DNA of 64,000 nt, from positions 62,001-126,000 of the IMG/VR virus record IMGVR_UViG_3300013120_000767; one strand, 5' to 3'. Positions 23,331-58,097 of the stretch are shown in pieces. The notes under the pieces are model-generated. The model was not told where the DNA came from and searched no databases. It worked only from the letters and a program-made list of their open reading frames with translations. Within the stretch, counting starts at the first letter, position 1; the number at the start of each line of letters is the position of its first letter. The position numbers were made by a program, and so were the translations under genes. The stretch is from an uncultured virus (IMG/VR IMGVR_UViG_3300013120_000767). Its lineage: Duplodnaviria > Heunggongvirae > Uroviricota > Caudoviricetes.

Positions 23331-23711
23331 CTAATTCACTCCACCGTTCTTATAGCAGATTCCCCCGAGCGACTGAGTGTACTGAAGTACGATTCCGGGC
23401 TTCCCTTCCTGCGAAACCGCTGCTACTACGGCGTACTCCCTCTTCTCCCGGCTGTAGCCGATCCACAGGCAGTTGGGTGGCGGCCCCAACTCGTCCAGGT
23501 CCAGGGCTACCCAACTCCCAATGCGTTGGGGGGCGTCGGCGCTTACCAGCCAGAAACGCCCCCGTTCGTTTTGGGAGACAGTGAGCCCCGACGGAAGCGT
23601 ACCAGCCTTGTCATACCTCCGAAACACCCGCACCAATGTCTGCACGAACCCGTCCAGGTCGTCTGTCTCCTCAAAGATGGGGTGGCAAAACCTCCGTCGT
23701 TGCGCTTTCAT
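23331..23711 (-). CDS. Hypothetical protein
   Basis: ATGA overlap with the polymerase gene. Confidence 0.6.
   Translation of the reverse strand: MKAQRRRFCHPIFEETDDLDGFVQTLVRVFRRYDKAGTLPSGLTVSQNERGRFWLVSADAPQRIGSWVALDLDELGPPPNCLWIGYSREKREYAVVAAVSQEGKPGIVLQYTQSLGGICYKNGGVN
23346..23356 (-). promoter_or_regulatory. Candidate phage-specific promoter GCTATAAGAAC
   Basis: Identical to 58087-58097 and one mismatch from 51076-51086. Confidence 0.5.
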
Positions 23712-25606
23712 TTTCCCTCTTCCCAGTTGTCCGCCACTGCTGCGTCTACAGTGAGGGGGACATCCAGTTCAATCCCGGGGTGCTCCATATCCGCCCGGAC
23801 GAGCTCGAGGGCCCGGGCAGCATGTTCCGCAGGTACTTCGATAATGATTTCATCGTGCACCTGCAAGAGCATCTCGGCTCCTAACTTCCGGAGTTCCTCG
23901 TCGGCGTCCATCTTCACCATGGCCAGCTTCATGATTTCGGCCGCCGTCCCCTGAATGGGGGTGTTATACGTTCTGCGCTGGGCCTCTGCAATAGCGCTCC
24001 ACTGCTTCCGGCTCTTGGGCCAGTAAACATAGCGCTTCCTTCCAAAGTACGTCGGGATGAACCCCTGCTCCTTTGAGAAGTCGACACAGTCGTCGAAGAA
24101 TTCCCGGACGTCGTAGTGGACGTCCCAGTACGCGTCCAGGTACTTCTGGGCTTCCCGTTTGGACACGATCATGCCAGCGTCCTTCTTCAGGTTTTTGACG
24201 AGCCCGTAGGCGGTCAACCCGTAGAGAACTCCAAAGTTGATGGTTTTGGCCACGGAGCGGTACTTCAGGAGCTGCTCGTCTCGTTCCGTGACGTCCCCTT
24301 TGGGCTTTTTCTTGGCTGCGACGATGTCCTCGTACGGGACGTTGAACATGCGGGACGCCGTCAGCGAGTGCATGTCCATGCCTTGCAAGATGGGCTCAAG
24401 TAGGGTCTTGGCCTGCGCCAGGTGCGCCAACACCCGCATTTCGATCTGGGCGTAGTCGGCCGCGATGAGCTTGTAGCCCTCCCTGGCAACGAACGCCCGG
24501 CGGATGTGGAAGCCGTGCTTGTCTTTGTCCGAACGGGGGATATTTTGCAGATTAGGATCTGAACTTGACAAGCGCCCCGTCGCAGTTACATGCTGGTTGA
24601 AGTGGGTATGGATGACGTCCTCTATCATCCGCTCCAGGGGGCCCTTGACGTAAGTGCCTCGGAACTTGTCCACCCCCCGGTACTCCTGGATGAGCTCCAG
24701 GACTGGGTCGTTCAAGTTCTGCTCCTGGTCCAGCAAGGTGGACAGGGACTCCGCATCGGTAGAGGGCAAGCCGGTGTCGGTCTTCCCCACTACTGAGTAG
24801 CCCAACACCTCGAACAGCGCATAGCGCAGCTGCGGGTGGGACTTCATGTTGACCACCCGCCCAGCGTAGCGGGAGAACTGCTCCGTGATCTTCCGGAGGC
24901 GCTCCTGCATGGGCGCCAGCAACCCTTCCAAGTACTCCCGGTCCAACCGCATCCCTCGGCGCTCCATCCTCCACAGAATGGGAGCCAGCGGACGCTCCAT
25001 GGTGATGTAGTAGTCCCATAGGGTGCACTTCTTGCCCGTAGTGTACGCCTCGGCCTCATACAGGTCCTTGAATATCACGTGGAAGATCATGATGGTCAAC
25101 CACGCATCCTTGGCCGCGTAGTCGACCAGTTGCACAAAGTCTTCGCCGGTGACGTCCTCCAATTTCATCTTGGAGAAGTTATACTGCCGGAACTTCTTCG
25201 GGGGCACCCCGAGTATCTTCCAGGAGAGCCCCTTCAAGTCGTGGAACCCGTCCGGGTCCCACAGGTTGGACATCATTTGGGTGTCGAAGCAGCGGGCCCA
25301 GAGCTTCATCGGGTCGAATCCTGCATTGGTCAGCAGGTGGATGTCATAGGCGGCATTGTGGAAGATTAGAATAGTGCTCGAGTCTTCTTCCAGGAATTGC
25401 TTCAGCGCATCCAGCGTGTACGCCTTGGTGGCGTACCTCGCTTCGGTGTTCGCAAAGGACCACAGCACGATGTGGTCCCGAATGATGTCCAACCCTGTGG
25501 TCTCGGTGTCAACGGCAAGGAACCCCCCCGTGGAGGCTTCGCGCAGCTTAGCGAGGACCTCCTCGCTGGTTTCCAAATACTGTGGTGGGGGGATTTCCCT
25601 GATCAT
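23708..25606 (-). CDS. polA: Family A DNA polymerase (3'-5' exonuclease plus polymerase, no 5' nuclease)
   Basis: ExoI DTETTG, ExoII FHNAAYD, ExoIII YAAKD; TGRLSSSDPNLQNIP; motif A DYAQIEMR; motif B RSVAKTINFGVLYG; motif C VHDE. Confidence 0.97.
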   Translation of the reverse strand: MIREIPPPQYLETSEEVLAKLREASTGGFLAVDTETTGLDIIRDHIVLWSFANTEARYATKAYTLDALKQFLEEDSSTILIFHNAAYDIHLLTNAGFDPMKLWARCFDTQMMSNLWDPDGFHDLKGLSWKILGVPPKKFRQYNFSKMKLEDVTGEDFVQLVDYAAKDAWLTIMIFHVIFKDLYEAEAYTTGKKCTLWDYYITMERPLAPILWRMERRGMRLDREYLEGLLAPMQERLRKITEQFSRYAGRVVNMKSHPQLRYALFEVLGYSVVGKTDTGLPSTDAESLSTLLDQEQNLNDPVLELIQEYRGVDKFRGTYVKGPLERMIEDVIHTHFNQHVTATGRLSSSDPNLQNIPRSDKDKHGFHIRRAFVAREGYKLIAADYAQIEMRVLAHLAQAKTLLEPILQGMDMHSLTASRMFNVPYEDIVAAKKKPKGDVTERDEQLLKYRSVAKTINFGVLYGLTAYGLVKNLKKDAGMIVSKREAQKYLDAYWDVHYDVREFFDDCVDFSKEQGFIPTYFGRKRYVYWPKSRKQWSAIAEAQRRTYNTPIQGTAAEIMKLAMVKMDADEELRKLGAEMLLQVHDEIIIEVPAEHAARALELVRADMEHPGIELDVPLTVDAAVADNWEEGK

Positions 25607-26664
25607 CAGGCGGCCTCACCCTCCGTCTTGGACCTGGCTTGCGCCCGGAAGGGGTTGGGTATCCCCAACAGCGCTGCTTGGTCGTCTGTGGACTGGCGGT
25701 CGTACGCCTTGAACCGGTAGGGGTACTTTCGGGCCTCCAGCATGCCCTCGTCCTCAACGGCCGTTGGGAAGTGGTTGTGCAGCTTGAGCACCTTCCCTCG
25801 CCCCTTGGGGTTCGGCACCTGCTCAATCTCCAAGTCGCAATCCCAGATATCGTAGAAGGTGGGGCTCCCGCACCCTTCCGAGACTTCCTGGGTACGGTGG
25901 TTGCGAACCTGGCAGTCGTGCTCCAGCTCCATGTAGCCCTCATGTCCGCAGTGGGGGCACTTGGCCTCCTCTACTTCCATCAGGAGTAGCGCGTCAAGGC
26001 CCACGTGGATCGCCTTACCGCACTTGGGGCAAGTCGCCTCGACAGGGAGCACCTCGCCCTCGTCGCAGGAGCGGCACTTCCGGGAGATCTCCCGGGACCA
26101 TTGGCAGAATGCCTCCCAACCAGCCTCGTCGAGGTCCAAGTGGCATTTCCGCCAATTGACCGTGACGTGCCCCGCTTTGCAGTGCTCGCAGCCCTCCCCC
26201 GTGCAGCGGGCGTAGCGGAAGCGGAACCCCTCGTCGTCCGGGTCCTTGCCCTCACTGCCCTCCAGCGGTACCTTGTGCAGCTTTGCATACTGGATGATGT
26301 TCACGGCGTACCAGGGGTTGGCGTAGAAGTGGTGCTTCGAAGTTTCCTTGAAGTACTCCTCGTCTTCCCAGCAAGGCACGCAGTCCTCGTCCCGATTGCC
26401 GGCGTGGCAATTGCAGGTGAGGAACCACCCCATCTTCTGGGGGTTGAACGGGTTCTGCACCCCGGGGGCCCAGCCCCGGTAATGCACGAACACTGCCTCG
26501 TTTTCATCCTCTCCGTACGTCCCGGGGAACGCCCGGATGACCTCCCGCTGACCGTCTTGGAGAATCAGCTTCGGATCGGTCCTCGTGCTGGTGAACTGGC
26601 GACTCCTCTTCTTGCGCCGCTTGTCCCCTCTGTACTGATTCAACAACTTGTCGTCTACCCGCAT
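25606..26664 (-). CDS. Zinc-rich ssDNA-binding protein (putative)
   Basis: Many CxxC pairs; lies between primase and polymerase, the usual SSB position. Confidence 0.5.
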   Translation of the reverse strand: MRVDDKLLNQYRGDKRRKKRSRQFTSTRTDPKLILQDGQREVIRAFPGTYGEDENEAVFVHYRGWAPGVQNPFNPQKMGWFLTCNCHAGNRDEDCVPCWEDEEYFKETSKHHFYANPWYAVNIIQYAKLHKVPLEGSEGKDPDDEGFRFRYARCTGEGCEHCKAGHVTVNWRKCHLDLDEAGWEAFCQWSREISRKCRSCDEGEVLPVEATCPKCGKAIHVGLDALLLMEVEEAKCPHCGHEGYMELEHDCQVRNHRTQEVSEGCGSPTFYDIWDCDLEIEQVPNPKGRGKVLKLHNHFPTAVEDEGMLEARKYPYRFKAYDRQSTDDQAALLGIPNPFRAQARSKTEGEAA

Positions 26665-29991: not shown

Positions 29992-30593
29992 TTCAACACT
30001 CCTTTCAGGGTACTCAAGATACGGAGTACCCCAGCTAAGTCCTCCTCCCATTCCCTCGTCTTTTCCGGCTTCCGGTCGATGAAGGCGGGGTGATGGACCA
30101 TGTACACTGGAAGAGTCCACGTGAGCTCGCCCAGTTCCATCGGCAGGCGGAACATCCGCCCCCGTAAATCAGTGATTCCTTGCGTCGTGTGCAGCAGCGC
30201 CTGCCCGCTGATCCGGCCGAGGCCGACAATCATGAACGGGTCCAGTAGGCGCAGTTGCTCCATCAAACGGGGCGCGCACACCCCGTACTCGTCTTTGCGG
30301 GGGTCTCGGTTGTCCAAGGGGCGGCACATGACCACGTTGGTCAAGTAAGCGTCCTTGGGGTCGAACCCTACCTGTTTGAGGGCTGCTTTAAGGCGCTGAC
30401 CGGACTTCCCCACGAAGGGCCTCCCGGTATCATCCTCTACTTCCCCCGGGGCCTCCCCGATGAATACTACCTTTGGGGATAGGCTGCCCGCCCCGAACAC
30501 GGTGTGGTTCCTGTCCTCGTGCAGTCGACACTTCGTGCACGCTGACCACTCCGTTTTCAAACGTCCCAATGCGGTAGCCGATGTTTTGGGCAT
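29982..30593 (-). CDS. Family 4 uracil-DNA glycosylase
   Basis: 'CTKCRL', 'FIGEAPGEVED..GRPFVGKSG', 'TNVVMCRP', 'HPA'. Confidence 0.95.
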   Translation of the reverse strand: MPKTSATALGRLKTEWSACTKCRLHEDRNHTVFGAGSLSPKVVFIGEAPGEVEDDTGRPFVGKSGQRLKAALKQVGFDPKDAYLTNVVMCRPLDNRDPRKDEYGVCAPRLMEQLRLLDPFMIVGLGRISGQALLHTTQGITDLRGRMFRLPMELGELTWTLPVYMVHHPAFIDRKPEKTREWEEDLAGVLRILSTLKGVLKCR

Positions 30594-33195
30594 ACTTCCT
30601 CATCATTTGAGCCATGGCATAGCACGGCTTAGCCTTGGGCACGTAAACGATCACCCAGGGCTGGTTCTTACTCTCAACATCCCGTAAGGACCGCCAGATG
30701 GCTTGCAAAAACCGCCCTTCCGAATCCTTCCCGACGGGCATTGTGATGAGGACTAAATCGAGGTCCAGCCGATTCAGACCCTCTCTCGCAGCTCCCATTG
30801 TTCCGACAATCAAATCGTTTGTCAAGAGCTCTTTTTCCCGCTTCTCCCATTTCACCTTCCCGGTAATGATTCCAGTAGGTTGGAGCTTCTCCTCGAACAA
30901 GTCATGCAGCCAATGGGCGTGTTTTCGAACATGGGTGAATACCATAGGTATTCTCCCTTGTTCGACAAACCCCCTGACGTCCGCAAAGATGCGGCGGTTG
31001 AACCCTCGCTCTTTGGCGATTTTTTTCCAAAACAGAGGAAAGTTGAACTTCCCTCCGCGATCTATCACATCTTTGTCGTGCTCTGTAGTCTTGATGGGAA
31101 CTTCAACGAAGGCCACCAGGGGCTTCATCGAGTGGTAGGTCGACCGGTATATCACCGGCCCCAGGTGGTAGAGGTACAGCGGTAGGGTGCCGTCCGCCCT
31201 TTCGGGGGTAGCCGTGAAACCGAACCTGGCTCCCCGGAACATGGAGGCGACTTTCAGCCCGGTAGGGGACCCAAGATTATGGACTTCGTCAAACACCACT
31301 GTTCCGAACTTGTCCCGTAACTCGACCGGGTAGATCCCAGCCTTCAAGGCCAGCGATCGCAGCGAGGCGATGACAATGGGCTTCTCCAGCTCGGAGTACT
31401 TGGCCCCATTGAAGACGCCGATGTCCTCCTCAGCAATTCCGGCCTTGTCCGCCAGCTCCCGCTTCCAGCCGCTGATGATGGACAGCGTGGGGAGGATGAC
31501 GATGGTCGCCTTGCCCCGCTGCACGATCTTCTTGACGGCCAGGACAGTGTTATGGTTGATGAAGCCATTACCGTAATACTCGTGCCCGTTGGGTACGGTG
31601 AAGTCCACTACGTCCTCAACGGTATTCTGGAGCTTGGTTACTTTCAGGAAGCGGAGACCGTAGCGGTCTATTTCCCTCAAGAGGCTTTCCAGAACCCTTC
31701 GGATGTGGTTACCCTTTTTCCCTTCTTTGTCTCGTACAATGCGTAGGAACTCACGCAAACGAGGGCGGCTGATGCCGACGGTTCGGGCATCCTTGTACGC
31801 AGCGTACACCTCTTGCCCGTACTCTTTGGCGCACTCGTACACCAGCCTACTGACTGGGACGACATCAATATTTGAGTTTCGGGGCCTCCTTTCCAGGTGT
31901 CTACGCAAAGTCGCCAGGGAGGCACCTTTGCTCCCAGAGCAAAACCCAATTTTCTCGGCGAACTTGATAACGTCGCCTCCACGGATTCCTACCTCCCAGG
32001 CATCTAAGTGGGTTGTTTTCTTTTTCCGCACTTTGGCCAGTATGCCCAATGCAAGGAGAGCTTGCTGAATCTCCCTAGAAAGCCGTTCGCTAGCAGACGA
32101 CGAGGTTACGCCGTCTTTGGGGATTACCCCCCCATCTGCGGTAAAGTACCCTTGGAGGAACCAACGTAGTACGTCGCTCCCTTGCCGCAGAACCGCCACA
32201 GGTATCGTTTTGTTCTCCGACTTAACCGAGAGAAGTCCATGGTGTTCCAGCCACGCCTTGTACTGGCAGGAACATATTTCGTAGTCGCAGTTGGACCCGG
32301 TGCCTTTACGCAACTTCACTCCTGCTGCCTTAGCGTGAGCCCGCATGACTCGCAACACGTCAGGGTCGACAGTTGATATCCTTGTCCGATTCCTAACGGT
32401 AAGCCCCCCGTCTCCAACAAGGAGCCCCAGAACAATAGCGTCTGTCCGGGATAGCTGCCCGGTTAGGTTAATGTCCGTTGACGAGTAGTCGGGGTCCTTC
32501 CGGGCATACTTGAACTTCTTCGCCTTAGCCGCTCCCCAAGACATGGAAGTAGCCAAAGCGACGTAGTCCCCCTCCTTCAACTCCCCCACCATGGTCCAAT
32601 TCAGGGTAGCTGTATCCGGGTCTAATGTAACAAGTGGGTGCTCCAATGTGCCTGCTTCCTGATATCCTAATTGCGTCTCTATAGAACGGCAGACAGAGAC
32701 TGGGAAGCGGTACGCCCTAGTTGCTTGTTGTGGGCCATTACGGGAATCTAGGAATAAAGCCTCCCCACTTGTTATTGCTAAGTGGGCGTCCTCGGCCCTG
32801 AAAATTCCTTGGTCAGTGTACAACCAAGTTCCCAACCCTACGCACTTCCCGCGACCCCCCGGAATGGAAAAAAGGCCGCCGTCGGCGTGCCTCAATGCCT
32901 CCCAGGCCTTCTCCTGTTCGGCATCCAGGAAGGAGGTTACTCGATCCTCCATGCGGGAAAAGTCCCGACCGGGAGGGGTCAAGTCCAGGACCTCCACGTC
33001 CATGGGGAACTCCCGGGGGATTGCTATGTGGGTGTCCGATTCGTGATAGCCGATACGGGCATGCTCGATACCGTCCAAGTCGGTGTTGTGGAAGGTCAAC
33101 CGCTCCCGGACTTCGGCAAGGTCGACCTCTGCCTTCCGCAGGAAGAGCAGGCCTGACTTGAACGAGGGCATCTCCCGTAGGTCTATGATGTTCAT
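30430..33195 (-). CDS. Superfamily 2 (UvsW/ResIII-like) helicase interrupted by an intein
   Basis: Walker A GGRGK|T split by the intein; DEVH; 'GFTATPERADG'; 'EGLN'. Confidence 0.9.
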   Translation of the reverse strand: MNIIDLREMPSFKSGLLFLRKAEVDLAEVRERLTFHNTDLDGIEHARIGYHESDTHIAIPREFPMDVEVLDLTPPGRDFSRMEDRVTSFLDAEQEKAWEALRHADGGLFSIPGGRGKCVGLGTWLYTDQGIFRAEDAHLAITSGEALFLDSRNGPQQATRAYRFPVSVCRSIETQLGYQEAGTLEHPLVTLDPDTATLNWTMVGELKEGDYVALATSMSWGAAKAKKFKYARKDPDYSSTDINLTGQLSRTDAIVLGLLVGDGGLTVRNRTRISTVDPDVLRVMRAHAKAAGVKLRKGTGSNCDYEICSCQYKAWLEHHGLLSVKSENKTIPVAVLRQGSDVLRWFLQGYFTADGGVIPKDGVTSSSASERLSREIQQALLALGILAKVRKKKTTHLDAWEVGIRGGDVIKFAEKIGFCSGSKGASLATLRRHLERRPRNSNIDVVPVSRLVYECAKEYGQEVYAAYKDARTVGISRPRLREFLRIVRDKEGKKGNHIRRVLESLLREIDRYGLRFLKVTKLQNTVEDVVDFTVPNGHEYYGNGFINHNTVLAVKKIVQRGKATIVILPTLSIISGWKRELADKAGIAEEDIGVFNGAKYSELEKPIVIASLRSLALKAGIYPVELRDKFGTVVFDEVHNLGSPTGLKVASMFRGARFGFTATPERADGTLPLYLYHLGPVIYRSTYHSMKPLVAFVEVPIKTTEHDKDVIDRGGKFNFPLFWKKIAKERGFNRRIFADVRGFVEQGRIPMVFTHVRKHAHWLHDLFEEKLQPTGIITGKVKWEKREKELLTNDLIVGTMGAAREGLNRLDLDLVLITMPVGKDSEGRFLQAIWRSLRDVESKNQPWVIVYVPKAKPCYAMAQMMRKYAQNIGYRIGTFENGVVSVHEVSTARGQEPHRVRGGQPIPKGSIHRGGPGGSRG
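31549..32844 (-). mobile_element. Intein (432 aa) with LAGLIDADG homing endonuclease
   Basis: Starts 'CVGLGT', has block B 'TLEHP', LAGLIDADG motifs 'LGLLVGDGG' and 'FLQGYFTADG', ends 'YYGNGFINHN' followed by Thr. Confidence 0.95.
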
Positions 33196-49169: not shown

Positions 49170-49984
49170 GCGTCCTCCAGGGTATAGCCTTGGTCAAGGT
49201 AGTATTGGACACAGTCCAACAACCCACTCCTTTTGTGGTCCCCTCCGAAGAAGCCGTAACACGAGTCTTCGATTTCCCCATTCCCACCAAAGACCTGAAA
49301 GCCGTAAACGGCACCGATGAGGTAGTCGTCATACACATCTACCTCGCTGCGCAGGTATTCCTTTATCTTCGTGATGCGGCCTCTATTGAGACGCTTCCAG
49401 CACATCTCCTCCCGCGCCTTTGTCTTCGAGATGAAGATGAAACCCACCTGTCCGCTGTCCCAAGGGCAGGTGAAGGGGTAGGTGCGCATGGTGATACCGC
49501 TGTGGGAGTACAGGTAGAGGGGGAGGACCACGGCCGGGTCCAGGTTCTTCCAGATCCAGGCTTCCATTTCCTCCCACCCGCTGAACTCTTCTGGTGGGGG
49601 AACTCCATGGTCCCTGTCCCCCAGGTCGTAGTTCCTGGCGTAGCACACCATGGTCCCGAGGTTGTCGTCTTCTCGGGGACTCACGGGCTGGTCGTCGATG
49701 ACTATCTTGACTACTTTTTCAGGATTCACGAGGCCCCTCCTTGGCTTCCTCGGCTGTTTGTTTCCATTGGATGCTCCCCTTAACGGGTGGACGCTCAGCA
49801 TCGCCTCCAGCAGCTCCCAGAACTTCTCGCTCATTCTTGTGCGTAGGGCGTTGCTGTGGGTGAGTACCCAGCTTCGCACTTCTTCCGGGGAGGGCACCTT
49901 CTCGCAGTCGTCGTAGGCGGACCCGAAGAGGGACTCCCAGATGTCATCAGCGGTGAACTCGATCTTGAAGACGGTGTTGTCATT
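49166..49984 (-). CDS. Hypothetical phage/plasmid early protein
   Basis: 'SPREDDNLGTMVC', 'LPLYLYSHSGIT', 'WDSGQVGFI', 'GAVYGF..DSCYGFFG'. Confidence 0.7.
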   Translation of the reverse strand, partial: NDNTVFKIEFTADDIWESLFGSAYDDCEKVPSPEEVRSWVLTHSNALRTRMSEKFWELLEAMLSVHPLRGASNGNKQPRKPRRGLVNPEKVVKIVIDDQPVSPREDDNLGTMVCYARNYDLGDRDHGVPPPEEFSGWEEMEAWIWKNLDPAVVLPLYLYSHSGITMRTYPFTCPWDSGQVGFIFISKTKAREEMCWKRLNRGRITKIKEYLRSEVDVYDDYLIGAVYGFQVFGGNGEIEDSCYGFFGGDHKRSGLLDCVQYYLDQGYTLEDA

Positions 49985-51074
49985 CATCTTTCGACATGCC
50001 TCCAATCTCCTCGGCACCTACTGGTACCTCGCCGACGATTTTCTCGTCGTTGAATGTCACGTCGGGGTTTTGCGGGTTCGCAATGAACGCCTCAAGCTTG
50101 TGGAGTGCTTCCCCCCTGGTCCTGGCGATGACAGTGTACTCCCCTTCCAATACTACCGCAGAGCGGACTATGAAGTACCGGTTGGGGAGATCTTCTTCCT
50201 GTACTTCCCGGTTGTGCAGCGCCCGGTCGACTTCAGCATCTTCGATTCGGGCAAAGTCCTTCTCTCGAAGCGCGCAGCGGTGGACCCGTTGCAGGGGGGA
50301 AGGGAGTCGTTCCTTGAAGTACGCCAGGAGTTTCCTCTTCTCTTCACCTTCCAGGAAGACGTGAGCGCCGTAGTTGCCCAAGCAGGCTTCTATGTCCTCC
50401 AGTTCCAGGTATCCCTGGATGACGTAGCGGGTGTAGTGGATGCGCCAGGTGTTGTCCTGGCCGCAGCTGAGCATGACCAACCAGTACCTCTGCCCGTGCT
50501 CGATGAGCAGGAAACCGAACTGCAGAGCCTTCTTCCGCAAGTCCTCGTAGTAGCCCCCGGCCATGCACCCGGCCGTGCATGTGTAGGGCACGTCCACTTC
50601 GTAGGCGGTGTTCCAGATGACGTCGAGGTCGACATGCCCTTCATAGCACTCCTCGCAGGGCTCGAATTCGAACTCGTAGGCGTTGTGGGCATAGTACTCT
50701 TTTACGTCCTCTTCGTCGACGCCGAAGTCGTCGATGAACGCTTGGACCACTGTGGCTTTGGCGTCGTCGTCCAGCTCTTCGTACTCCCCTGTCATGCCGA
50801 GGCGCCCGGCGTTCTCGGTGAAGAAGTCTCCCAGAGGCATGAGCATCTGCTCCTTGCAGTACCTGAACACGACCTGGAAGACCTCGTCTTCGTCCAACTC
50901 TTCGTACTTCCGATGGTTCTCGCCGTCGCAGAATGGGCAGGAGAGGTCGATGTCCTCCTGCCAGTTTTCCTGCTCCATGACCGCACCAAAATCCAGCGTG
51001 TTCAAAATTTCCTCCCTAAAGGAAGTGCCCCGGTCGATGACCCCCGGGGGTTGGGTCAAGCTGCTTTTCTTCAC
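49980..51074 (-). CDS. Acidic hypothetical protein, first gene of the early array
   Basis: 364 aa; CPFC..CEEC; 'LSCGQDNTW'; start uncertain. Confidence 0.7.
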   Translation of the reverse strand: MKKSSLTQPPGVIDRGTSFREEILNTLDFGAVMEQENWQEDIDLSCPFCDGENHRKYEELDEDEVFQVVFRYCKEQMLMPLGDFFTENAGRLGMTGEYEELDDDAKATVVQAFIDDFGVDEEDVKEYYAHNAYEFEFEPCEECYEGHVDLDVIWNTAYEVDVPYTCTAGCMAGGYYEDLRKKALQFGFLLIEHGQRYWLVMLSCGQDNTWRIHYTRYVIQGYLELEDIEACLGNYGAHVFLEGEEKRKLLAYFKERLPSPLQRVHRCALREKDFARIEDAEVDRALHNREVQEEDLPNRYFIVRSAVVLEGEYTVIARTRGEALHKLEAFIANPQNPDVTFNDEKIVGEVPVGAEEIGGMSKDE

Positions 51075-51075
51075 A

Positions 51076-51086
51076 GTACTTATAGC
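51076..51086 (-). promoter_or_regulatory. Candidate phage-specific promoter GCTATAAGTAC
   Basis: Heads the roughly 13-kb array of small genes; AT-rich upstream. Confidence 0.55.
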
Positions 51087-51132
51087 AAAATAAGGAAAGT
51101 TTTTGAGGCAGCCAGGCCATCAAAGGACCGAA

Positions 51133-52203
51133 CTACTCGAGCTCGAACGGCCACGGTTCTCGGCTTGCCCATGGCCCGTCGGTGGGGGAGCAGGTGTCCG
51201 GGTCCATGTCCTGGAGGCGGTAGAAGTCCCACCTCTGGCGGCATTTGTCCACTTCCTTGATGCGCCGGAAGGTCTGTTTGGTGCCGGAGTAGAACTTCTC
51301 CCTTACTCCGTCCCCGTCCGTGTCCACCTTGGGGTAGTACCCATCCGCCGCCCACCGGTACAACCCGGACGGAAGAGGCTGGCCTGGGTTGTGGGGGTCC
51401 TCTAGCCGCAGTCCGTCCTCCCCCCCTACTTTGAGGATAAGGATGACGTGGTGGTCCATTTCCACGAGGTTGACTTTGTTGAGCCAGTCCCAATGTTGGT
51501 ACAGGATGTTCAGCGGGCGCTGCTCCAGGCGCAGTTTCCCGTGCACTTCGAAATAGTCCCCGTACCCTGGAACGACGTGGCGACCTACCTTGGCATCATG
51601 CTTCGAAGTGGCGATTTTGCGCCCGCTGCGGCCGATGCGGAAGTTGTAGTCCTGGTTGACGCAGACAATGCCGCCCACCATCAGCCCCGCCCAGGGGGAG
51701 CAGGTCCCGCCGTGAACGGGCGCTTCCAGTTCATGGCCGGGGACTAGCCTCCCCACCTTGGGGACGACGAAGACCTGGTTGTTGTCAAACTGCTCCTTGT
51801 CGAACTGGTAGGGGTCGATCCACCCCCCGTACCGACATCCCTGCCCGCCGTCGCAGTTCTGCTGCTGCATGACAGCGGCGGAGATGCGCCGGTCGAAGTT
51901 GTTGGCCGGCAGCCCGAAGGGGAGGGCAGCGGCCTCCTCGAAGGTGTCGACGACCTCATTGGTGATGTGCGACTGTGCTGCGGCCAGGATGCCGTCCAGC
52001 GTCTGGATGGTTTCGCCGGCGTGGTCCCCCACCCCTACGTGCCCGTCGACTGCGAGCCCGTAGGCAGCCTGGAACGCCCGCACTGCGAAATCCGTCATGT
52101 TGAAGAATTTTCCGTCCTCGGGCCCTACAGGATAACCCGCCCTGTTGAGCTTTCCCTGTAACACCCGCACTTCCGCGTGAATCGTTCCGTGCTTAAGAAT
52201 CAT
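51133..52203 (-). CDS. Putative endolysin: N-terminal peptidoglycan-binding domain plus Cys/His catalytic-like domain
   Basis: 'VRVLQGKLN..GY..EDGKF..T..AVRAFQ..GLAVDG.VG..T'; 'GGTCS' and 'HVILI'. Confidence 0.7.
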   Translation of the reverse strand: MILKHGTIHAEVRVLQGKLNRAGYPVGPEDGKFFNMTDFAVRAFQAAYGLAVDGHVGVGDHAGETIQTLDGILAAAQSHITNEVVDTFEEAAALPFGLPANNFDRRISAAVMQQQNCDGGQGCRYGGWIDPYQFDKEQFDNNQVFVVPKVGRLVPGHELEAPVHGGTCSPWAGLMVGGIVCVNQDYNFRIGRSGRKIATSKHDAKVGRHVVPGYGDYFEVHGKLRLEQRPLNILYQHWDWLNKVNLVEMDHHVILILKVGGEDGLRLEDPHNPGQPLPSGLYRWAADGYYPKVDTDGDGVREKFYSGTKQTFRRIKEVDKCRQRWDFYRLQDMDPDTCSPTDGPWASREPWPFELE

Positions 52204-52218
52204 GTGTGGTCCCTCCTT

Positions 52219-52460
52219 TTGCGATTTCTTGACGGCCTGATTTAACCAGGTATCTTGGCCTCCTCCCCCACCTCACGGTGGGGGATTCCTGTCCACACAC
52301 TACCAATGTAAACTGTAGATGTCAAGCAAGTTGGGCGTCTCCTCGGTGGCCTGAAGGCGGGGGGTGTCCGCTGCTGGCGGAGTCGTAACTAACATGGAAG
52401 TACTGCGGGCACACCCCCCGATTGCGATTTCTTGACGGCTTGATTTAACCGGGTATTATG
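52219..52460 (+). repeat. Tandem duplicated sigma70-type promoter (35-40 bp direct repeat)
   Basis: 52219-52253 and 52422-52456 are 33/35 identical; each has TTGACG-N16-TAT(C/T)(A/T)T. Confidence 0.8.
52255..52393 (-). mobile_element. Miniature IS200/IS605-derived element, copy B (139 bp)
   Basis: Minus strand has a degenerate left hairpin, TTGACA-N17-TAGTGT, then right end GGAATCCCCCACCGTGAGGTGGGGGAGGAGGCCAA; excision restores the flanking repeat. Confidence 0.7.
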
Positions 52461-52499
52461 GGGGGTGAGAAAGGCAACCCCGCTCGGCGGAGGCGCTAC

Positions 52500-53450
52500 A
52501 TGATACAGTTGGATTATTACGATGACGGCGGTGAGTTCTTGGCCCAGACTGTGGGTGAGGGAAGGGAACTTGCCAAGGTCGCCGCTCGTGGGATCTCTAA
52601 GGGGGTGCGGGTAGACAAGGCGGACCATAAGAAGTTCCCCGACCAGGAGTTCGCCCTGGTGCGGAAACAGAAAGGCAAGGTTGTGGGAAGGTACTACCCG
52701 ATTTCGGACCAGGCCAACGCCTTGGTTTCCATGTTCTATTTCCTACACACGGGCAAGAAGCTCCCCGAAGAAGTCAGGGATGAGGTCAGCGCTCGACTCT
52801 TGACGGCGTTGAGGAAGTTCGGGCTCAAAGTGAAGGGCGGGGCCGACCTTTCCAAGACTGCCTCAGCGGAGTTTGACGAGGTACGAGAGCCAAAGGCTCG
52901 GCCTCAGCCGAAAAACTTCATCGTGGTGCGGGGGGCCAACGTCGGCTTTGACTCAAGAGACCAACTGGAGAAGCTAGCCGCTAGCTTGGCCGGCCAGATA
53001 GGCGCTTTGCGCCCCTGCGAGAGGCGGTCGGTGGCTTTGCAGCTGCTGATGCACGGAGTAGAGGCCCCCGACCCATTGAGCAAGTACGCTGCCGTAGATG
53101 AGAACACCAGTCGCCAGTTCCTGCTCGATCGGCGCCGTGCGTTCTTAGAGGCCCATCGGCCGGATGCGCTGAGCCTTTTTGACACCATCCTGGGAGAGCA
53201 GGACTTGGAGAAGCACGCCAGTATGTTGGACCAGTTGGACCAGGAGGTGTGCTTGAAGGGGCACCCGGACGCTTTCTTGACCACGTTCGGTCACCGGGAG
53301 GTGCCGCCCAAAGAGGAGGTCCCTGAAGACACCTTGGAGAAAGTGGCGGCGGTGATGGGCGCCACCGTGCGCAACGCCGTAGCCACGGGGAACATAGGAA
53401 TCCTGAGCCGTGAGCACCGTAGGGTGCTCACAACTATCATGGAGGAGTAG
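52500..53450 (+). CDS. Head-associated/internal protein (putative) with repeated L-x-K-x-A-A/S motifs
   Basis: RBS GGAGG; six motif copies; three genes upstream of the portal. Confidence 0.6.
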   Translation: MIQLDYYDDGGEFLAQTVGEGRELAKVAARGISKGVRVDKADHKKFPDQEFALVRKQKGKVVGRYYPISDQANALVSMFYFLHTGKKLPEEVRDEVSARLLTALRKFGLKVKGGADLSKTASAEFDEVREPKARPQPKNFIVVRGANVGFDSRDQLEKLAASLAGQIGALRPCERRSVALQLLMHGVEAPDPLSKYAAVDENTSRQFLLDRRRAFLEAHRPDALSLFDTILGEQDLEKHASMLDQLDQEVCLKGHPDAFLTTFGHREVPPKEEVPEDTLEKVAAVMGATVRNAVATGNIGILSREHRRVLTTIMEE

Positions 53451-53452
53451 AC

Positions 53453-54208
53453 ATGCCGAGCAACAACTTTGGAGCGTTCCTGTCGATGAGTTACCACGGC
53501 TGGTTCACTGAGCGCCTGAAGGACGTCCGAAGCTACATCGACCGGGCGTTCATGAACAGCGAGGGTGGCCTCCAGCGGAACACCATCCCCTTCTTCTGCC
53601 TGGGGGACGGGCCCGCCGGGGATGACCAGCACCCGATCATTGTGGACGCTGTGGCCTCGCACGAGATTTACATCGGAGCCTACCAGATCAACTATGGCCT
53701 GGGTTACTGGGCCCCGAAGGCCGGCTTCCGCCTTTACGCCTTGGAGGGCAACACGGGGAAGGACTACAACCTGGTCATCAACGTTGCTGCCGGCGCCGCC
53801 TTTGTTTTGGCGTGGGCCGCTGCCACCGAGACCTTGACCATTTCCATCCCGAACGACGAGTCCGGGACCTTGGCTGGGTTGCGCACCGCCTTGCTGGCGG
53901 ACGCCACCTTGCGGGAGATGTTTGCCGTGAGCGGCACGGATGCGGTCACCTTGGTTGCCGCCGACGTCATGGCCTCCACTGCCATCACTGCCCCGGGCAC
54001 CTGGGGAACCGGCGTGGCGGGAATGGCGATGCTCGCCGACCTGTACTTCTCCCGGTTGGAGCCGAACTGGGCCATGCTGCACATCCTGGCCGACCAGTTC
54101 AGCACGGCGCTGGACGCTTTCTTGCCCCTCACCCTTGTGGTTGAAGTGTGGAACGACGGCCAGCTCATGCAGTTCCACCACCTTGCCCAAGCCGAGGGCG
54201 CCGAGTAG
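53453..54208 (+). CDS. Virion structural protein (putative)
   Basis: RBS GGAGGAG; Ala/Gly/Thr-rich beta domain. Confidence 0.55.
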   Translation: MPSNNFGAFLSMSYHGWFTERLKDVRSYIDRAFMNSEGGLQRNTIPFFCLGDGPAGDDQHPIIVDAVASHEIYIGAYQINYGLGYWAPKAGFRLYALEGNTGKDYNLVINVAAGAAFVLAWAAATETLTISIPNDESGTLAGLRTALLADATLREMFAVSGTDAVTLVAADVMASTAITAPGTWGTGVAGMAMLADLYFSRLEPNWAMLHILADQFSTALDAFLPLTLVVEVWNDGQLMQFHHLAQAEGAE

Positions 54209-54217
54209 AGACGACAG

Positions 54218-54739
54218 GTGAAGCTGACTGATCCCGCACTCCACCCAGTGTTCTTGGCGTTCCTTTTGGACGAAGGGGGTGCTGGGTGGGTTGAGTGGGG
54301 GGCAGCGAAGCTGAGGTCGTTTGTCGGCCCTTGCTCCCAGGGCAATTGGAACAAGATTCAAGGGGCAAAGACCGTTCGCTGTTCCCACGCCGCATTTGAT
54401 GACTTTCGGGTCTTTTCTCACGTGGTGCAGGCACTCAACGGCAGGACCCCTAACTTCTTGCTGTTGGAGCCCCCGAGCATCCCTGAGTTGGTGGGTGGGG
54501 CGCAGATGGTGATGTTGCTCGCGTTGCACACGGATAAGCAGTTCGCCCCCGAAGTTTATCGGTACGCAGCGGCCGTGAGCGACCTGCATGGGGCGGGGAC
54601 TTTACCGGAACCGTTGAAAAAGTCTTCGGAGTATGTAAAGGTACCAATAAGGGCCCCCGGTCTCCGCGAGGAAGCTGCGGAGTATGTGGGGAAGTTGAAC
54701 CGGGTGTTGATCGCCCAGATGGAGGCGCACGGTGGGTGA
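54218..54739 (+). CDS. Hypothetical protein
   Basis: In the operon upstream of the portal. Confidence 0.6.
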   Translation: MKLTDPALHPVFLAFLLDEGGAGWVEWGAAKLRSFVGPCSQGNWNKIQGAKTVRCSHAAFDDFRVFSHVVQALNGRTPNFLLLEPPSIPELVGGAQMVMLLALHTDKQFAPEVYRYAAAVSDLHGAGTLPEPLKKSSEYVKVPIRAPGLREEAAEYVGKLNRVLIAQMEAHGG

Positions 54740-56669
54740 AGGCAGAGTCAAATCGTTGCCGCAGAGGCGGCCGCCTTCCAAACTGGCCGCTTACGATCGG
54801 TCCCGGCTGACGTTGAGCAAGCCCCCGTCGCCTTTTTTGGATTACGCCAGTACAGTACTCCCCGACACCCTCCATGAGGTATGGCGGTGGTGCGCCTACT
54901 TCGCCATCTTCAACCCCCTACTCAATGCTGCCATTGTCCGCAAAGCATTGTACCCGGTTACCGATCTCACTTTGCGGGGCGGGCTTCGGGAGTCTGAAAT
55001 AGACGACTGGGTGGAGCTCCTGACGGAGTTTTTGGATATTCAGGCGTTGCGGGTGCAGATCAACCTTGACCTCTATGTGTACGGGCACGCTGCAGTGTCG
55101 GTGATCGCCCCGTTCAACAAGTACTTCCTCTGCAAGAAGTGCGGGAAGCCTCACTTAGCCAAGATCGCCAAGTTCAAGGTGGACCCGTGGGACAAGTCCT
55201 TCCGGGTGCGTTGTGTGGTCTGCAAGAGCTACCAACGAGCAGTGGTCAGGGATTTCTACATCAAGGCGGGGAATCGCATCACCCTACGGCGGTGGGACCC
55301 CTTTGAGCTGTCGGTGAGGCGCGTCGGCTTCTCGTTGCAGCCTAAGTACCAGGTGGATTTCTCCAAAGAGTTTCGGAACCAGGTCAAGTTAGGGAAGCGG
55401 GAGGCCATTGCCGACACCCCGCAGGAGTTTGTTGAGGCCATCCTCCGTAATAAGAAGATGAACCTGTTCAATGACCAGGTGTTCATCTTTGAGGAAACAG
55501 CGCTGACTCCTTCCACCTACAAGAAGTCCGTGCAGACCAGGGAAGGGTGGCCCTGGCCGACGTTGGCCGGGACGTTGCCTGACTGCTTCCATATGAAGAT
55601 TGTTTTGAAAGCGGAGGAGGCGCTGGTGATGACTCAGCTCATCCCTTTCCGGATGATCACCCCGGCCGCTTCCGGAGATGCTGGGCACAGTGTGAACCTG
55701 TCCGGCGCCGCAAAGATGTGGATGGACAAGATGCGCAGCCAGCTGGAGACTTGGGAGCAGGACCCGGCCTCGGTGGCCATTTCCCCCATCCCGTCGCAGC
55801 TGCTCCAGTTCGGGGACCCCAATCGCCTGCTCATGCCTGACCAGCAGGTCAGGTTGCTGATGGAGCGTATCCTCATTGGAGCGCGCACACCGGTCGAGTT
55901 CGTGTGGGGCGGCAAGTCGTGGTCGGGCGCTTCCCATTCTCTGCGGGCATTGGACACCGAGTTCATAGCGTTGATGCACTTGCACAAGCGGTTCATTCGG
56001 TTCGTGATGAAGAAGTGCGCCTCCATTCTGGGCTGGGGGCTGCCCAACGAGGTCTTCCTCCAACCCATCATGTCCGGGGACGAGGTCCAGAAGCTCTCCA
56101 TCCTGAGCGGCATGGCGGCCCAGGGCGGCCTGGCGTACCGGGTGGTGCACGAGCGAATGGGCCTTGACAGTGAGGCCGTTTGGGAAGCACAACTCGAGGA
56201 GCAGAAGATGCGAGTGCGCAACCAGGCGGCGATTCAGCGGTTGCAGGAGGAATTGGGGCTCGGCCCTCCACCGGGGCAGCCTCAACCTGGGCAGCCTCAA
56301 CCTGGCCAGGAAGCACCGCCGGGAGGAGCCCCTGGAGAGGGACAGCCTCAACCCGGCCAGGAGGCTCAACCGGGGGAATCCCCCTTAGCGCCTCCCCCCG
56401 ACCAGTTGTCGGGAACGCACGGGGTGATGGGAACGCCGGAGATACTCGCTATGGTGCCTCCCGAAGGTGTGGACCCGGGGGCAGTACACAAGATCAGCAT
56501 GGCGCTGAAGCATCAGTCCCCCTTGCAGCGGGCTATGGTGTTGCAGGACATCGCCAACAAGAACATTGATATGCACCGGGCGCTGATGGAGCAATTCAAC
56601 CCCATGCAGCCGGTCATTGAAAGGCCCCTCCCTGAGCAGCTCCCGCCACGCAGAGCGGGGTACAGCTAA
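54732..56669 (+). CDS. Probable portal protein with zinc-ribbon insertion and Pro/Gln-rich tail
   Basis: 'WRWCAYFAIFNPLLNAAI..YPVTD', 'LDLYVYGHA', 'GWPWP', 'ILIGARTPVEFVWG'; CKKC..CVVC insert. Confidence 0.7.
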   Translation: MGEGRVKSLPQRRPPSKLAAYDRSRLTLSKPPSPFLDYASTVLPDTLHEVWRWCAYFAIFNPLLNAAIVRKALYPVTDLTLRGGLRESEIDDWVELLTEFLDIQALRVQINLDLYVYGHAAVSVIAPFNKYFLCKKCGKPHLAKIAKFKVDPWDKSFRVRCVVCKSYQRAVVRDFYIKAGNRITLRRWDPFELSVRRVGFSLQPKYQVDFSKEFRNQVKLGKREAIADTPQEFVEAILRNKKMNLFNDQVFIFEETALTPSTYKKSVQTREGWPWPTLAGTLPDCFHMKIVLKAEEALVMTQLIPFRMITPAASGDAGHSVNLSGAAKMWMDKMRSQLETWEQDPASVAISPIPSQLLQFGDPNRLLMPDQQVRLLMERILIGARTPVEFVWGGKSWSGASHSLRALDTEFIALMHLHKRFIRFVMKKCASILGWGLPNEVFLQPIMSGDEVQKLSILSGMAAQGGLAYRVVHERMGLDSEAVWEAQLEEQKMRVRNQAAIQRLQEELGLGPPPGQPQPGQPQPGQEAPPGGAPGEGQPQPGQEAQPGESPLAPPPDQLSGTHGVMGTPEILAMVPPEGVDPGAVHKISMALKHQSPLQRAMVLQDIANKNIDMHRALMEQFNPMQPVIERPLPEQLPPRRAGYS

Positions 56670-56716
56670 AAAAGGGGGAAAGGGGGACGGTCCCCAGAAC
56701 CGTCCCCCTCCCTTTG
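56668..56716. terminator. Probable bidirectional terminator
   Basis: AGGGGGACGG/CCGTCCCCCT stem flanked by an A-run and TTT, between convergent genes. Confidence 0.65.
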
Positions 56717-56723
56717 CCGGAAG

Positions 56724-56825
56724 TCAGCCGAACAGTGGAATTTCACCTTCCGGGTCCAGAAACCCGTCGATTAGCTCCCACAGCTCCCAGCCCACCTCCA
56801 GCCCCAGTAGAACAGCGTTGAACAT
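56724..56825 (-). CDS. 33-aa hydrophobic peptide (not in ORF track)
   Basis: RBS GAGGT; MFNAVLLGLEVGWELWELIDGFLDPEGEIPLFG. Confidence 0.4.
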   Translation of the reverse strand: MFNAVLLGLEVGWELWELIDGFLDPEGEIPLFG

Positions 56826-56910
56826 CGGATTACCTCATAGGTTGAGGTTGCCGATGTCTCTCAGTCCCACCAGTTTGCGTCGCCTGGTCGGGCTGTGAGG
56901 GCTCTCTTTT

Positions 56911-58011
56911 TCAGAACCCTTCCTCCTCCTCGTCCACGACAAGTATGCCCTCCCTTGCGGACGTGGCGGCACGGTACAGGTACCATGCCCTCTCGTGATC
57001 TTTCCACCAGGCTGGGGGCGGGAGCAGCACAACCCAGTCGGTGTCGTTCAGTGTGTAGACCGTCATGATGCGGCGGTCGCTCCCACGGGGGTAATTCAGG
57101 CCGGTGGGGGACCATACGGCATTGAGGTCCTTTTCCAGCACATCCATGGGTACCGTGTCCTTGGCAAAGTCCGACACGTAGTCACACTTGGCGAGTTCCT
57201 CAGCGGTCTTTTCCGGCGTGCCTCTCCGGAGATACCGTTCCCGAGTGAACTTCGTTTGGCAGGCTTCCAGGATGAGCCCGTAAGCTCGGTTGGGGCCATG
57301 CCGTGCTATGTCCGCCACGGTAGTGGCAAACACCCCAAAGTCATCTTTGGGGAAGCGATTGGGCGTTGCCCAATCAATCAACTCCATATCTGCCCAAGTT
57401 GGCACGACGACCGTAATCATTCGGGCATCCTCCTCGATGGCGTCCACCACTTGGATGATATCCTCATCTATCGGCAGCCACTGGTCCGGGTGGAACCCCA
57501 GCTCTCGTAGATTCCGCACGATCGTGAAAGGCAGAGAGACCTCGTTCTCTGCGGCGTTCATGAGCAGATTCGACATCGCCCCCGGCCTTGGGGATCGGAA
57601 CGGGTCCCCAACGAGGTGGATGGCCGATTTGAAACTTGCACCGAAGAATGAGTTACTTACGGTTTCGGCGTTGACCAGGGTGACTTCGCAATCCGGGGGT
57701 ACGATGTACTCCCAGGCCAACATGTAGGGGATGACTCCGGTGTCCTCAACTTCTTTCAGTACTGCCCGCCCGGCTTCGCTCCGCCCCACTTCTTCCTTCC
57801 CCCAGCCATAGGCTTCCCAGGGGGCCTTTCCGTAGTGGGCTTCAAAGAGCTTTATGGATTGGGCGTTGGAGATGAGGACCATCCCCTCTGGCAGGTGGTC
57901 TCGGAAGAATCGGGAGAATCCGCCCCTTCCTCCGATCACCCTCCCGTCGAGTTGTGTCTCGTCAAGCCGATGTGCTACCTGGCGAGTCACACTTGTGATG
58001 TCTAGTGCCAC
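56911..58011 (-). CDS. Hypothetical protein
   Basis: 366 aa, RBS AGGAGGT; downstream of GCTATAAGAAC. Confidence 0.7.
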   Translation of the reverse strand: MALDITSVTRQVAHRLDETQLDGRVIGGRGGFSRFFRDHLPEGMVLISNAQSIKLFEAHYGKAPWEAYGWGKEEVGRSEAGRAVLKEVEDTGVIPYMLAWEYIVPPDCEVTLVNAETVSNSFFGASFKSAIHLVGDPFRSPRPGAMSNLLMNAAENEVSLPFTIVRNLRELGFHPDQWLPIDEDIIQVVDAIEEDARMITVVVPTWADMELIDWATPNRFPKDDFGVFATTVADIARHGPNRAYGLILEACQTKFTRERYLRRGTPEKTAEELAKCDYVSDFAKDTVPMDVLEKDLNAVWSPTGLNYPRGSDRRIMTVYTLNDTDWVVLLPPPAWWKDHERAWYLYRAATSAREGILVVDEEEEGF

Positions 58012-58086
58012 ATTGTCTACCTCCTGTCTTATGCGGTTTTCTCCCCAATTCCACAGTGCCTGGTGTTTTTCTCGGCACTGTACATT

Positions 58087-58097
58087 GTTCTTATAGC
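58087..58097 (-). promoter_or_regulatory. Candidate phage-specific promoter GCTATAAGAAC
   Basis: Intergenic; same motif as 23346 and 51076. Confidence 0.55.

Follow-up and report, generated by a model that had tools for sequence, protein, structure and literature searches.

The hexamer TATAAG, set in a conserved context, marks a promoter-like signal in a lineage of phages that encode a bacterial-type RNA polymerase (RNAP) with its beta and beta' domains fused in a single chain. The signal was followed up in a 64,000-nucleotide (nt) stretch of DNA, the window, which comprises bases 62001-126000 of one 134,075-bp virus contig (IMG/VR record IMGVR_UViG_3300013120_000767; 59.5% G+C). Here, we show that G-N-[TC]ATAAG is a lineage-wide signal of fused-RNAP phages, enriched upstream of genes and oriented with them, and that two promoter classes exist in this genome. 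It is probable that the TATAAG sites are phage-specific promoters of the sigma type, read by a phage sigma factor together with the fused polymerase.

In the mechanism that we propose, the GCTATAAG sites would be the -10 regions of a promoter class belonging to the whole single-chain beta-beta' RNAP lineage. Each site would consist of a weak -35-like box (CTCAAA or similar), a 17-nt spacer, (T)G-N-TATAAG and a T-G step 6-7 nt after the hexamer, at which transcription would start. A phage sigma of 317 amino acids (aa) most likely recognizes the TATAAG signal while bound to the fused polymerase. The phage holoenzyme would then drive the minus-strand non-virion units (small, recombination and other accessory genes), and transcription of the portal module and of the sigma-gene block would depend on host-type TTGACA/TAnnnT promoters. 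Because the lineage carries its own bacterial-type RNAP and sigma, these phages probably run part of their transcription themselves. Specificity most likely resides in the phage sigma, and not in the bare polymerase, because the sites have an extended -10 geometry and their -35-like box is weak and particular to the lineage. Which protein reads the motif, where transcripts start and when they are made we infer rather than observe.

Occurrence and anatomy of the TATAAG sites

A preliminary description of this DNA had pointed to three minus-strand copies of GCTATAAG(A/T)AC that seemed unlikely to have arisen by chance, each upstream of a minus-strand gene unit. An exact scan bears this out. GCTATAAGWAC matches the window exactly three times, always on the minus strand (23346-23356, 51076-51086 and 58087-58097), dinucleotide-preserving shuffles contained 0.00 copies on average, and none of 100 shuffles reached three. 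Allowing one mismatch added no site in the window, and the rest of the 134,075-bp contig held no further exact copy of GCTATAAG(A/T)AC. The hexamer itself is rare, with only seven occurrences on both strands of the whole contig, four of them in the context GCTATAAG. A fourth related site, m4 (TGCTATAAGAG), lies outside the window at contig positions 6903-6910 (minus strand). All four sites are on the minus strand, which is the coding strand of the unit downstream, and two of them (m3 and m4) are in divergent gaps, where a promoter is required.

The gene map that places the sites was built for the contig from codon usage, and all intergenic spacers were inspected in the orientation of the downstream gene. 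Site m3 (58083-58118, minus strand) lies inside the 164-nt divergent gap between the RNAP gene (58176, plus strand) and a minus-strand gene for a 366-aa protein of unknown function (56911-58011; no Pfam, PHROGs or NCBIfam match). This single gene makes up the m3 unit, which is closed by a terminator-like hairpin of 16 pairs followed by a T-run (56712-56678, minus strand). The site reads AGCAAA at the -35-like position (58118-58113), a 17-nt spacer, cGC-TATAAG (hexamer 58095-58090) and aaca-ATG, with the start predicted at G 58083. Site m2 (51072-51107, minus strand) heads the long array of small minus-strand genes, as had been claimed for one of the copies. It is found about 70 nt upstream of the first array gene (49980-51005, minus strand; about 341 aa, unknown function, no family match) and is preceded by the gene for a peptidoglycan-binding-domain protein. 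It reads CTCAAA (51107-51102), a 17-nt spacer, TGC-TATAAG (hexamer 51084-51079) and tact-GTG, with the predicted start at G 51072.

Site m1 (23342-23377, minus strand) falls within the last 25 nt of open reading frame (ORF) 23331-23711, which follows the DNA polymerase gene, and the ATG at 23260 is 88 nt further downstream. It consists of CTCAGT (23377-23372), a 17-nt spacer, TGC-TATAAG (hexamer 23354-23349) and aacg-GTG, with the predicted start at G 23342. The first gene after it (22796-23260, minus strand; 154 aa) is followed by genes for a RecA/UvsX-like protein, a Holliday-junction resolvase, a Cas4-like nuclease and an AAA ATPase. Site m4 heads a 16-gene minus-strand array outside the window. 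The distance from site to start codon is 60-88 nt in this genome, and 18-132 nt for the sites that make up the logo of two complete relatives, G001 and G002.

By its sequence, the layout of the sites is that of a sigma-read promoter: a weak -35-like box, 17 nt, TGnTATAAG and T-G at the expected start. TG stands one base before TATAAG in three of the four sites, m3 having CG instead. A purine followed by T-G occupies positions 5-7 after the hexamer in all four (aacgGTG, tactGTG, aacaATG and agaaATG), and T-G at positions 6-7 thus puts a pyrimidine/purine step at the place where a bacterial-type enzyme would start. The boxes found at 17-nt spacing upstream of the hexamers (CTCAAA, CTCAAA, CTCAGT and AGCAAA) are unlike TTGACA. 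Alignment of the four sites also agrees with the earlier remark that they lack a good -35 and the final T of sigma70. The last base of the hexamer is G in four of four, where the sigma70 -10 element TATAAT ends in T, nothing near TTGACA stands at 16-18 nt, and a sigma70 scan reports none of the sites. They also differ from hairpin promoters of the N4 type, as the core GCTATAAGAAC lacks self-complementary arms and no inverted repeat is common to the four cores.

Two weaker variants that had been listed with these copies did not hold up, neither of them reaching a score of 9 with the matrix described in the next section. GTATAAAAGGAC, near 35221, coincides in part with the ribosome-binding site of the gene that begins at 35215 and was rejected as a member of the class. 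GCATAAGAC (58026-58034, minus strand), a possible weak second copy 62 nt downstream of m3, also overlaps a ribosome-binding site, and its function is doubtful; its spelling, GCATAAG, is the local one in two relatives (L010 and L021). A leaderless reading of the RTG that follows the hexamer was rejected by eye, the frame stopping after 2 codons at m1 and 18 codons at m3, or being out of the gene frame at m4.

Two further features accompany the sites. A G+C-rich inverted repeat can be seen by eye about 10-60 nt after each of the four (window 23290-23345, 51030-51060 and 58045-58078, minus strand, and at the site outside the window), for example cagtgcc...ggcactg after m3; these repeats may be hairpins of the 5' untranslated region. 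In addition, each of the two putatively TATAAG-driven arrays encodes one Lar-like restriction-alleviation zinc-ribbon protein (window 47417-48031 and contig 3850-4356, both minus strand).

Conservation of the signal among related phages

A near-identity DNA search of a phage collection returned no matches, and the sole match of a single-protein locus search of viral contigs was a 100%-identical, non-independent copy of the same virus. Polymerase homology provided 80 loci from viral contigs and 34 from metagenome contigs, 63 of which hold the start of the RNAP gene. Within 250 nt upstream of that start, 39 of the 63 loci have [TC]ATAAG on the minus strand, facing away from the gene, and 2 have it on the plus strand. 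The corresponding counts for control windows placed in the RNAP gene are 3/63 and 1/63. The G+C content of the loci that share the word ranges from 0.32 to 0.69. In three of the four closest relatives it points away from the RNAP gene, no more than about 100 nt from the gene start, as an exact GCTATAAGAAC in L087 (RNAP 68% identical) and L090 (45%) and as GCTATAAGAGTAGTG in L088 (46%), and L087 has a second copy 6.8 kb away. L089 (RNAP 45% identical) has no copy beside its RNAP gene. In more distant relatives the same place is taken by the spellings GGTATAAG, GTTATAAG, GGCATAAG or CGCATAAG.

Motif discovery on upstream regions, proposed earlier as a check, placed TATAAG at or near the top of the enriched 6-mers in three genomes: the present one and the two complete relatives, G001 (181 kb, with terminal repeats) and G002 (193 kb), whose genes were called as for this contig. 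An unbiased 6-mer count in oriented upstream regions of this genome has both CTATAA (5 regions, 0.15 expected) and TATAAG (4 regions, 0.17 expected) among the top four. TATAAG ranks first in G002 (14 regions, 0.82 expected) and in G001 is second only to the ribosome-binding word (13 regions, 1.97 expected). The G001 and G002 sites read (t)GG[TC]ATAAG; some information is also seen at about 17-23 nt upstream of them, and downstream a T-G/A step occupies positions 6-7. Across the relatives the G two bases before the hexamer is near-invariant and a T before that G is common.

As a cross-validation, a matrix made from 28 sites of G001 and G002 only was scanned over this genome, with five shuffles as control. 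The three highest scores in the genome belong to m2 (24.0), m3 (16.9) and m4 (16.4), shuffle maxima being 13.4-15.8. In the relatives, the genes behind the sites encode a class II ribonucleotide reductase, a metallophosphatase, HNH nucleases and many small proteins of unknown function, and none of the 15 proteins searched from such positions matched a known virion-protein family. One G002 gene behind a TATAAG site (contig 186951-189533, minus strand; L144:6951-9533) encodes an 860-aa protein with major-vault-protein domains (MVP_shoulder, 1.2e-26, and Vault repeats).

A cultured relative, Salmonella phage Arash (OQ632216.1), extends the comparison. Its RNAP is 27.8% identical and split into gp206 and gp216, and its gp10 is homologous to the phage sigma family (hhalign 99.8%, E 2.2e-27); gp10 was reached by this profile comparison but not by a tblastn search of the phage collection with the sigma. 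The minus strand of the 180,819-bp Arash genome, which carries the non-virion genes, contains 30 copies of GGTATAAG and the plus strand one (shuffle mean 4.97, maximum 12), with the site consensus tcca.aa...tGGTATAAGtAAagTGTAaa. Information at the position of the -35-like box is seen in G001, G002 and Arash alike. The housekeeping promoter consensus of Salmonella ends in T, so the Arash word is not simply the promoter of its host.

In both phages the virion genes, sigma and RNAP are on one strand and the non-virion genes on the other, in Arash behind GGTATAAG-N4-RTG sites; the sigma and the portal protein are homologous, the sigma gene lies among structural genes in Arash, and the polymerase gene there comes after the portal gene. 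Differences are the split RNAP of Arash, the spelling (GGTATAAG against GCTATAAG here) and the number of sites (about 30 against 4). The 656-aa protein encoded after the RNAP gene here has no similarity to Arash gp218. The word 'promoter' is absent from the main text of the Arash paper (PMC10585845). The sole plus-strand GGTATAAG of Arash (record 11590-11602, L145) stands 4 nt ahead of the start codon (ATG) of gp9, which directly precedes gp10; a start there would give a leaderless message, and the placement is possibly due to chance.

The fused polymerase, the phage sigma factor and the host-like promoters

The fused RNAP gene starts at 58176 on the plus strand and continues 214 nt past the window end at 64000, encoding 2012 aa in the contig, of which 1941 are in the window. 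Pfam recognizes Rpb2 and then Rpb1 domains in the single chain (Rpb2_6, 1.1e-48; Rpb1_2, 4.1e-25; Rpb1_5; Rpb2_3). The protein thus combines beta and beta' domains and the catalytic NADFDGD in one ORF of a phage contig, the mark of the mReC phages. In an alignment of relatives, residues N1377-D1383 are invariant except for position 1380 (F, H or T). Its homologues number in the thousands, at about 2,050 aa and on contigs of up to 190 kb. The Pfam, PHROGs and NCBIfam matches include neither an alpha nor an omega subunit. No clear promoter of either class is present in the 164 nt that precede the RNAP gene (58012-58175, plus strand). The polymerases of several relatives also contain LAGLIDADG or intein domains and reach 2,400-2,900 aa.

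A sigma-70-family gene of 317 aa lies outside the window (contig 53565-54518), among genes for proteins of 1,726, 1,061 and 885 aa. Regions 2, 3 and 4 of the family are recognizable in its product, which matches Pfam Sigma70_r3 (6.6e-9), has a C-terminal helix-turn-helix, matches a PHROG of sigma factors (7.7e-12) and aligns with a PDB sigma F (2.3e-10) over residues 121-237 and 284-310, that is, regions 2-3 and 4.2. Its best NCBIfam matches are SigB/F/G (4e-16) and FliA/WhiG (3.9e-12), both far below the subfamily cut-offs (59.4 against 234.35 bits and 46.4 against 189.6 bits). Orthologues were found in all nine near-complete relatives (4/4 and 5/5), at loci with a G+C content of 0.37 to 0.62, and are inherited with the fused polymerase.

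A structure prediction for sigma residues 76-317 with RNAP residues 1040-1420 gave a complex score of 0.54 (runs 0.67, 0.54 and 0.35) against 0.00 for the best control, with a predicted local distance difference test (pLDDT) of at least 69 for the partner and runs that agree in at least 33% of contacts. Of 157 solved complexes, 116 reached the mark applied to such scores, as did 2 of 215 mismatched pairs; the passes at scores of up to 0.60 comprised only 18 of the 157 solved complexes and both of the mismatched pairs that passed. The predicted complex thus lends weak support to the pairing. Complexes of sigma with beta' have already been solved, so the pass may reflect likeness alone.

A second promoter class in this genome is host-like, TTGACA-17-TAnnnT. 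Raw counts of such sigma70-like sites are not above chance (5 against 4.4 expected, 12 against 6.1 and 4 against 4.5). Their placement is another matter: oriented upstream non-coding space makes up 2.3% of both strands, and 9 of the 46 matches in this genome are located there, where 1.1 would be expected. The same test gave 6/29 against 1.0 in G002 and 6/138 against 4.0 in G001. In this genome, host-like sites head the portal module (52432), the giant-protein block with the sigma gene in it (contig 43409), the unit that follows the polymerase gene (contig 127228) and three minus-strand units, including the replication operon (34141).

In the window, the portal module is headed by TTGACG-16-TATTAT (52432-52459, plus strand), and a further plus-strand promoter of this class was found by the scan at 52229-52256. 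Both lie in the divergent gap 52204-52499, each in one of two copies of an approximately 40-nt repeat, TTGCGATTTCTTGACGGCyTGATTTAACCrGGTATyyTGG; on the minus strand of the same gap, a TTGACA-17-TAGTGT site faces the gene for the peptidoglycan-binding-domain protein. The last gene of the plus-strand module, with the RNAP gene downstream of it on that strand, encodes a 645-aa portal-protein homologue (54732-56669, plus strand; BLASTP to Arash gp204, annotated as portal, E 9e-35 over 510 aa). On the minus strand, TTGATG-17-(TG)TAGAAT (34139-34167) stands ahead of the replication operon and TCGACA-17-TAGAAT (36898-36926) ahead of the gene starting at 36878. Of the sigma70 promoters named in the preliminary description, those at 52229, 52432 and 34139 were recovered by the scan; the one at 6840 (TTGACT-17-TAGCCT) is visible but under the scan threshold.

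The first gene of the replication operon (33849-34106, minus strand) encodes a KH-domain RNA-binding protein of the KhpA/KhpB type (6.3e1 bits, E 2.3e-17). The operon has its sigma70-like site yet lies downstream of m2 and could therefore be reached from both promoter classes, which are not cleanly separated. It had been suggested that host sigma70 holoenzyme transcribes replication and virion genes; this agrees with the host-like site of the portal module, but the replication operon, with m2 upstream on the same strand, need not be served by host-type promoters only. The two-polymerase programme of which that suggestion was part survives in so far as a promoter-like, non-sigma70 signal stands at non-virion units and a host-like class accompanies it. 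The bare fused RNAP is probably not its reader, given that a phage sigma exists, encoded outside the window on which the preliminary description was based.

Candidate readers and relation to known transcription systems

Several observations weigh against reading the sites as promoters of the phage sigma and polymerase. This genome has only four sites per 134 kb, and the contig is possibly incomplete, since relatives measure 180-193 kb. Site m1 is the weakest of the four, with a matrix score of 11.9 that ranks fifth in the genome and is below the shuffle maxima. The word does not adjoin the RNAP gene in 24 of the 63 related loci. The -35-like box is weak, and absent at 17-nt spacing in L088 and L090. 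The GC/TG context before the hexamer is common to host-like promoters here (TGCTATAAT, GCTATATT and TGCTATGAT), and the complex prediction is unable to tell the phage core from the host core. No sequencing runs, RNA or DNA, are listed as containing window positions 50001-60000.

A further claim can be set on top of the preferred reading, and is not opposed to it: that the fused polymerase with its sigma is packed in the virion, injected and starts early genes at TATAAG, host RNAP later making the replication and virion proteins, much as in N4. Granted that phage sigma and fused polymerase read the sites, we consider this claim nearly balanced, with the scale tipping slightly to the negative side. 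By analogy it draws on purified Arash particles, in which liquid chromatography-mass spectrometry listed 116 proteins, among them RNAP beta (Gp206, 3516 spectra, the most of any protein), beta' (Gp216, 1210 spectra) and sigma (Gp10, 467 spectra) (PMC10585845). The gene arrangement would fit, as in this phage and in Arash alike large virion-type genes surround the sigma gene, and the RNAP gene is a neighbour of the portal gene on the virion-gene strand. In addition, the RNAP gene itself has no TATAAG site facing it, and the genes behind the sites are small unknowns or concern recombination or nucleotide metabolism, with no virion families among those searched. However, ribonucleotide reductases and RNA ligases are also on the Arash list, and the authors concede that abundant proteins may have been carried over (PMC10585845). 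Arash is also distant, with its split and divergent RNAP, and the position of the replication operon downstream of m2 blurs the division between the two promoter classes. The fullest form of the claim, a complete minimal holoenzyme of single-chain beta-beta' core and dedicated sigma that is packed, injected and starts infection from TGnTATAAG independently of the host polymerase, is put forward tentatively, as a picture more apt to fail than to hold.

The phage sigma might instead read TATAAG and direct the host core, leaving the fused RNAP for other promoters or another task. T4 gp55, which reads TATAAATA late promoters, and SPO1 gp28 and gp34 are phage sigmas that act on the host core at middle or late genes. 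They share with the present system a phage sigma that reads a short, AT-rich, -10-like word unlike the host consensus. A sigma with regions 2-4 could bind any bacterial-type core, and the prediction of a complex with the phage core is weak. Moreover, in a survey of jumbo phages the sigma-bearing groups had no RNAP and the RNAP-bearing groups no sigma factor (PMC7824862). T4 and SPO1, however, have no polymerase core of their own; the present phage has one beside its sigma, and the units behind its sites are of the non-virion kind. Sigma and fused polymerase are co-inherited in nine of nine near-complete relatives, the promoter word is conserved with both, and the 6-mer search gave no second conserved motif that could serve the phage polymerase. 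We regard use of the host core as unlikely.

Less probable still is that the sites are ordinary promoters of the host, either of the extended -10 type for sigma A or for an alternative sigma, in which the final G is accidental. Extended -10 promoters of bacterial sigma70 read TGnTATAAT, start about 7 nt downstream and can dispense with a canonical -35. Three of the four sites here likewise have TG one base before the AT-rich hexamer; the sites differ in the final G, in the CTCAAA-like box and in their reader, which is probably the phage sigma. TGnTATAAx is near the extended -10 consensus, and with the GC/TG context shared, the sites here could conceivably be read by sigma A of the host or by one of its alternative sigmas. 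What makes it improbable is that the final G is kept in all four sites, that [TC]ATAAG recurs beside the RNAP gene in loci of such different G+C content, that Arash, whose host is Salmonella, has 30 copies of GGTATAAG on one strand, and that a separate TTGACA/TAnnnT class coexists in the same genomes. The least probable reading, which we give hardly any credence, takes the word for a non-promoter signal (a regulator-binding or processing site, or a replication or packaging element); it could appeal to start sites being predicted from sequence, but is at odds with the strict orientation of the sites and their distances before start codons, with their position at unit heads in divergent gaps and with the promoter-like geometry.

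Returning to the phage sigma and its polymerase, the promoters of group-3 sigmas such as sigma-28/FliA, TAAA-N15-GCCGATAA, have the same spacing as CAAA-N15-GCTATAAG here and a similar core, with a different -10 word. The best family matches of the phage sigma, SigB/F/G and FliA/WhiG, are of this same group 3, at scores far below the cut-offs. The N4 virion RNAP is a single-subunit, T7-like enzyme whose early promoters are hairpins. The multisubunit RNAPs of the jumbo phages phiKZ and AR9 are phage-encoded, split into 4-5 subunits and use phage-specific promoters (PMC7598289, PMC9209446). Common to those systems and the one proposed here is a phage-encoded polymerase, in some of them packed in the virion, that starts early genes from phage-specific promoters, packing and timing being features of the known systems. 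Their enzymes work without a sigma-70-family factor, whereas here a one-chain core is accompanied by a phage sigma.

The closest description is that of the mReC phages, which likewise encode beta and beta' domains of a multisubunit-type RNAP in Caudovirales (Weinheimer and Aylward, 2020; PMC7481178). Neither the promoter class nor the co-inherited sigma is described in the main text of that paper, where the terms 'sigma' and 'promoter' do not occur. In the portions of the literature available to us, we found no description of a TATAAG promoter or of a sigma partner for these polymerases.

If the preferred reading is true, a large and widespread group of uncultured phages would use a third kind of phage transcription system, a one-chain bacterial-type core with a true sigma and a simple, portable promoter, next to the single-subunit enzymes of the T7/N4 type and the sigma-less split enzymes of phiKZ-type jumbo phages. 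If packed and injected, the holoenzyme would be the first sigma-dependent virion RNA polymerase. A simple sequence rule (G-N-TATAAG, start about 7 nt downstream, one strand) would sort non-virion from virion genes in hundreds of barely annotated metagenomic genomes, and the sigma would be a natural case of preference for G where all housekeeping sigmas need T. The cultured member, Arash on Salmonella, makes the reading testable now.

The remaining gene map is briefly as follows. The plus-strand blocks of the contig carry giant proteins, the portal homologue and the polymerase; almost none of their proteins was recognized by Pfam or PHROGs, and the portal alone could be named, through Arash. 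The small-gene part of the minus-strand blocks consists of genes of unknown function by the gene map, Pfam and PHROGs. A minus-strand replication block encodes a family A DNA polymerase, a primase, a DnaB-like helicase, a UDG (uracil-DNA glycosylase) and an intein-bearing helicase, and a recombination block has genes for the RecA/UvsX-like protein, the resolvase and the Cas4-like nuclease. The intein-bearing helicase is a 921-aa protein of the ResIII/DEAD type (30430-33195, minus strand), and the intein that interrupts it includes a homing-endonuclease domain of the LAGLIDADG type (Pfam LAGLIDADG_3, 2.6e-15; Intein_splicing, 4.7e-8, under its cut-off).

Two features lie outside the window. A chaperonin of the Cpn60/GroEL type (contig 37366-39003, minus strand; L083:17366-19003; Pfam 3.4e-37) is encoded in a three-gene minus-strand unit with its own sigma70-like promoter. 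The plus-strand block at contig 7221-20556 (L082, L083) encodes an asparagine synthase, three glycosyltransferase-like proteins, two methyltransferases, a radical-SAM/SPASM enzyme, a UDP-glucose dehydrogenase and a protein with a QueC-like domain; judged by these families, it looks like a pathway for sugar or base modification.

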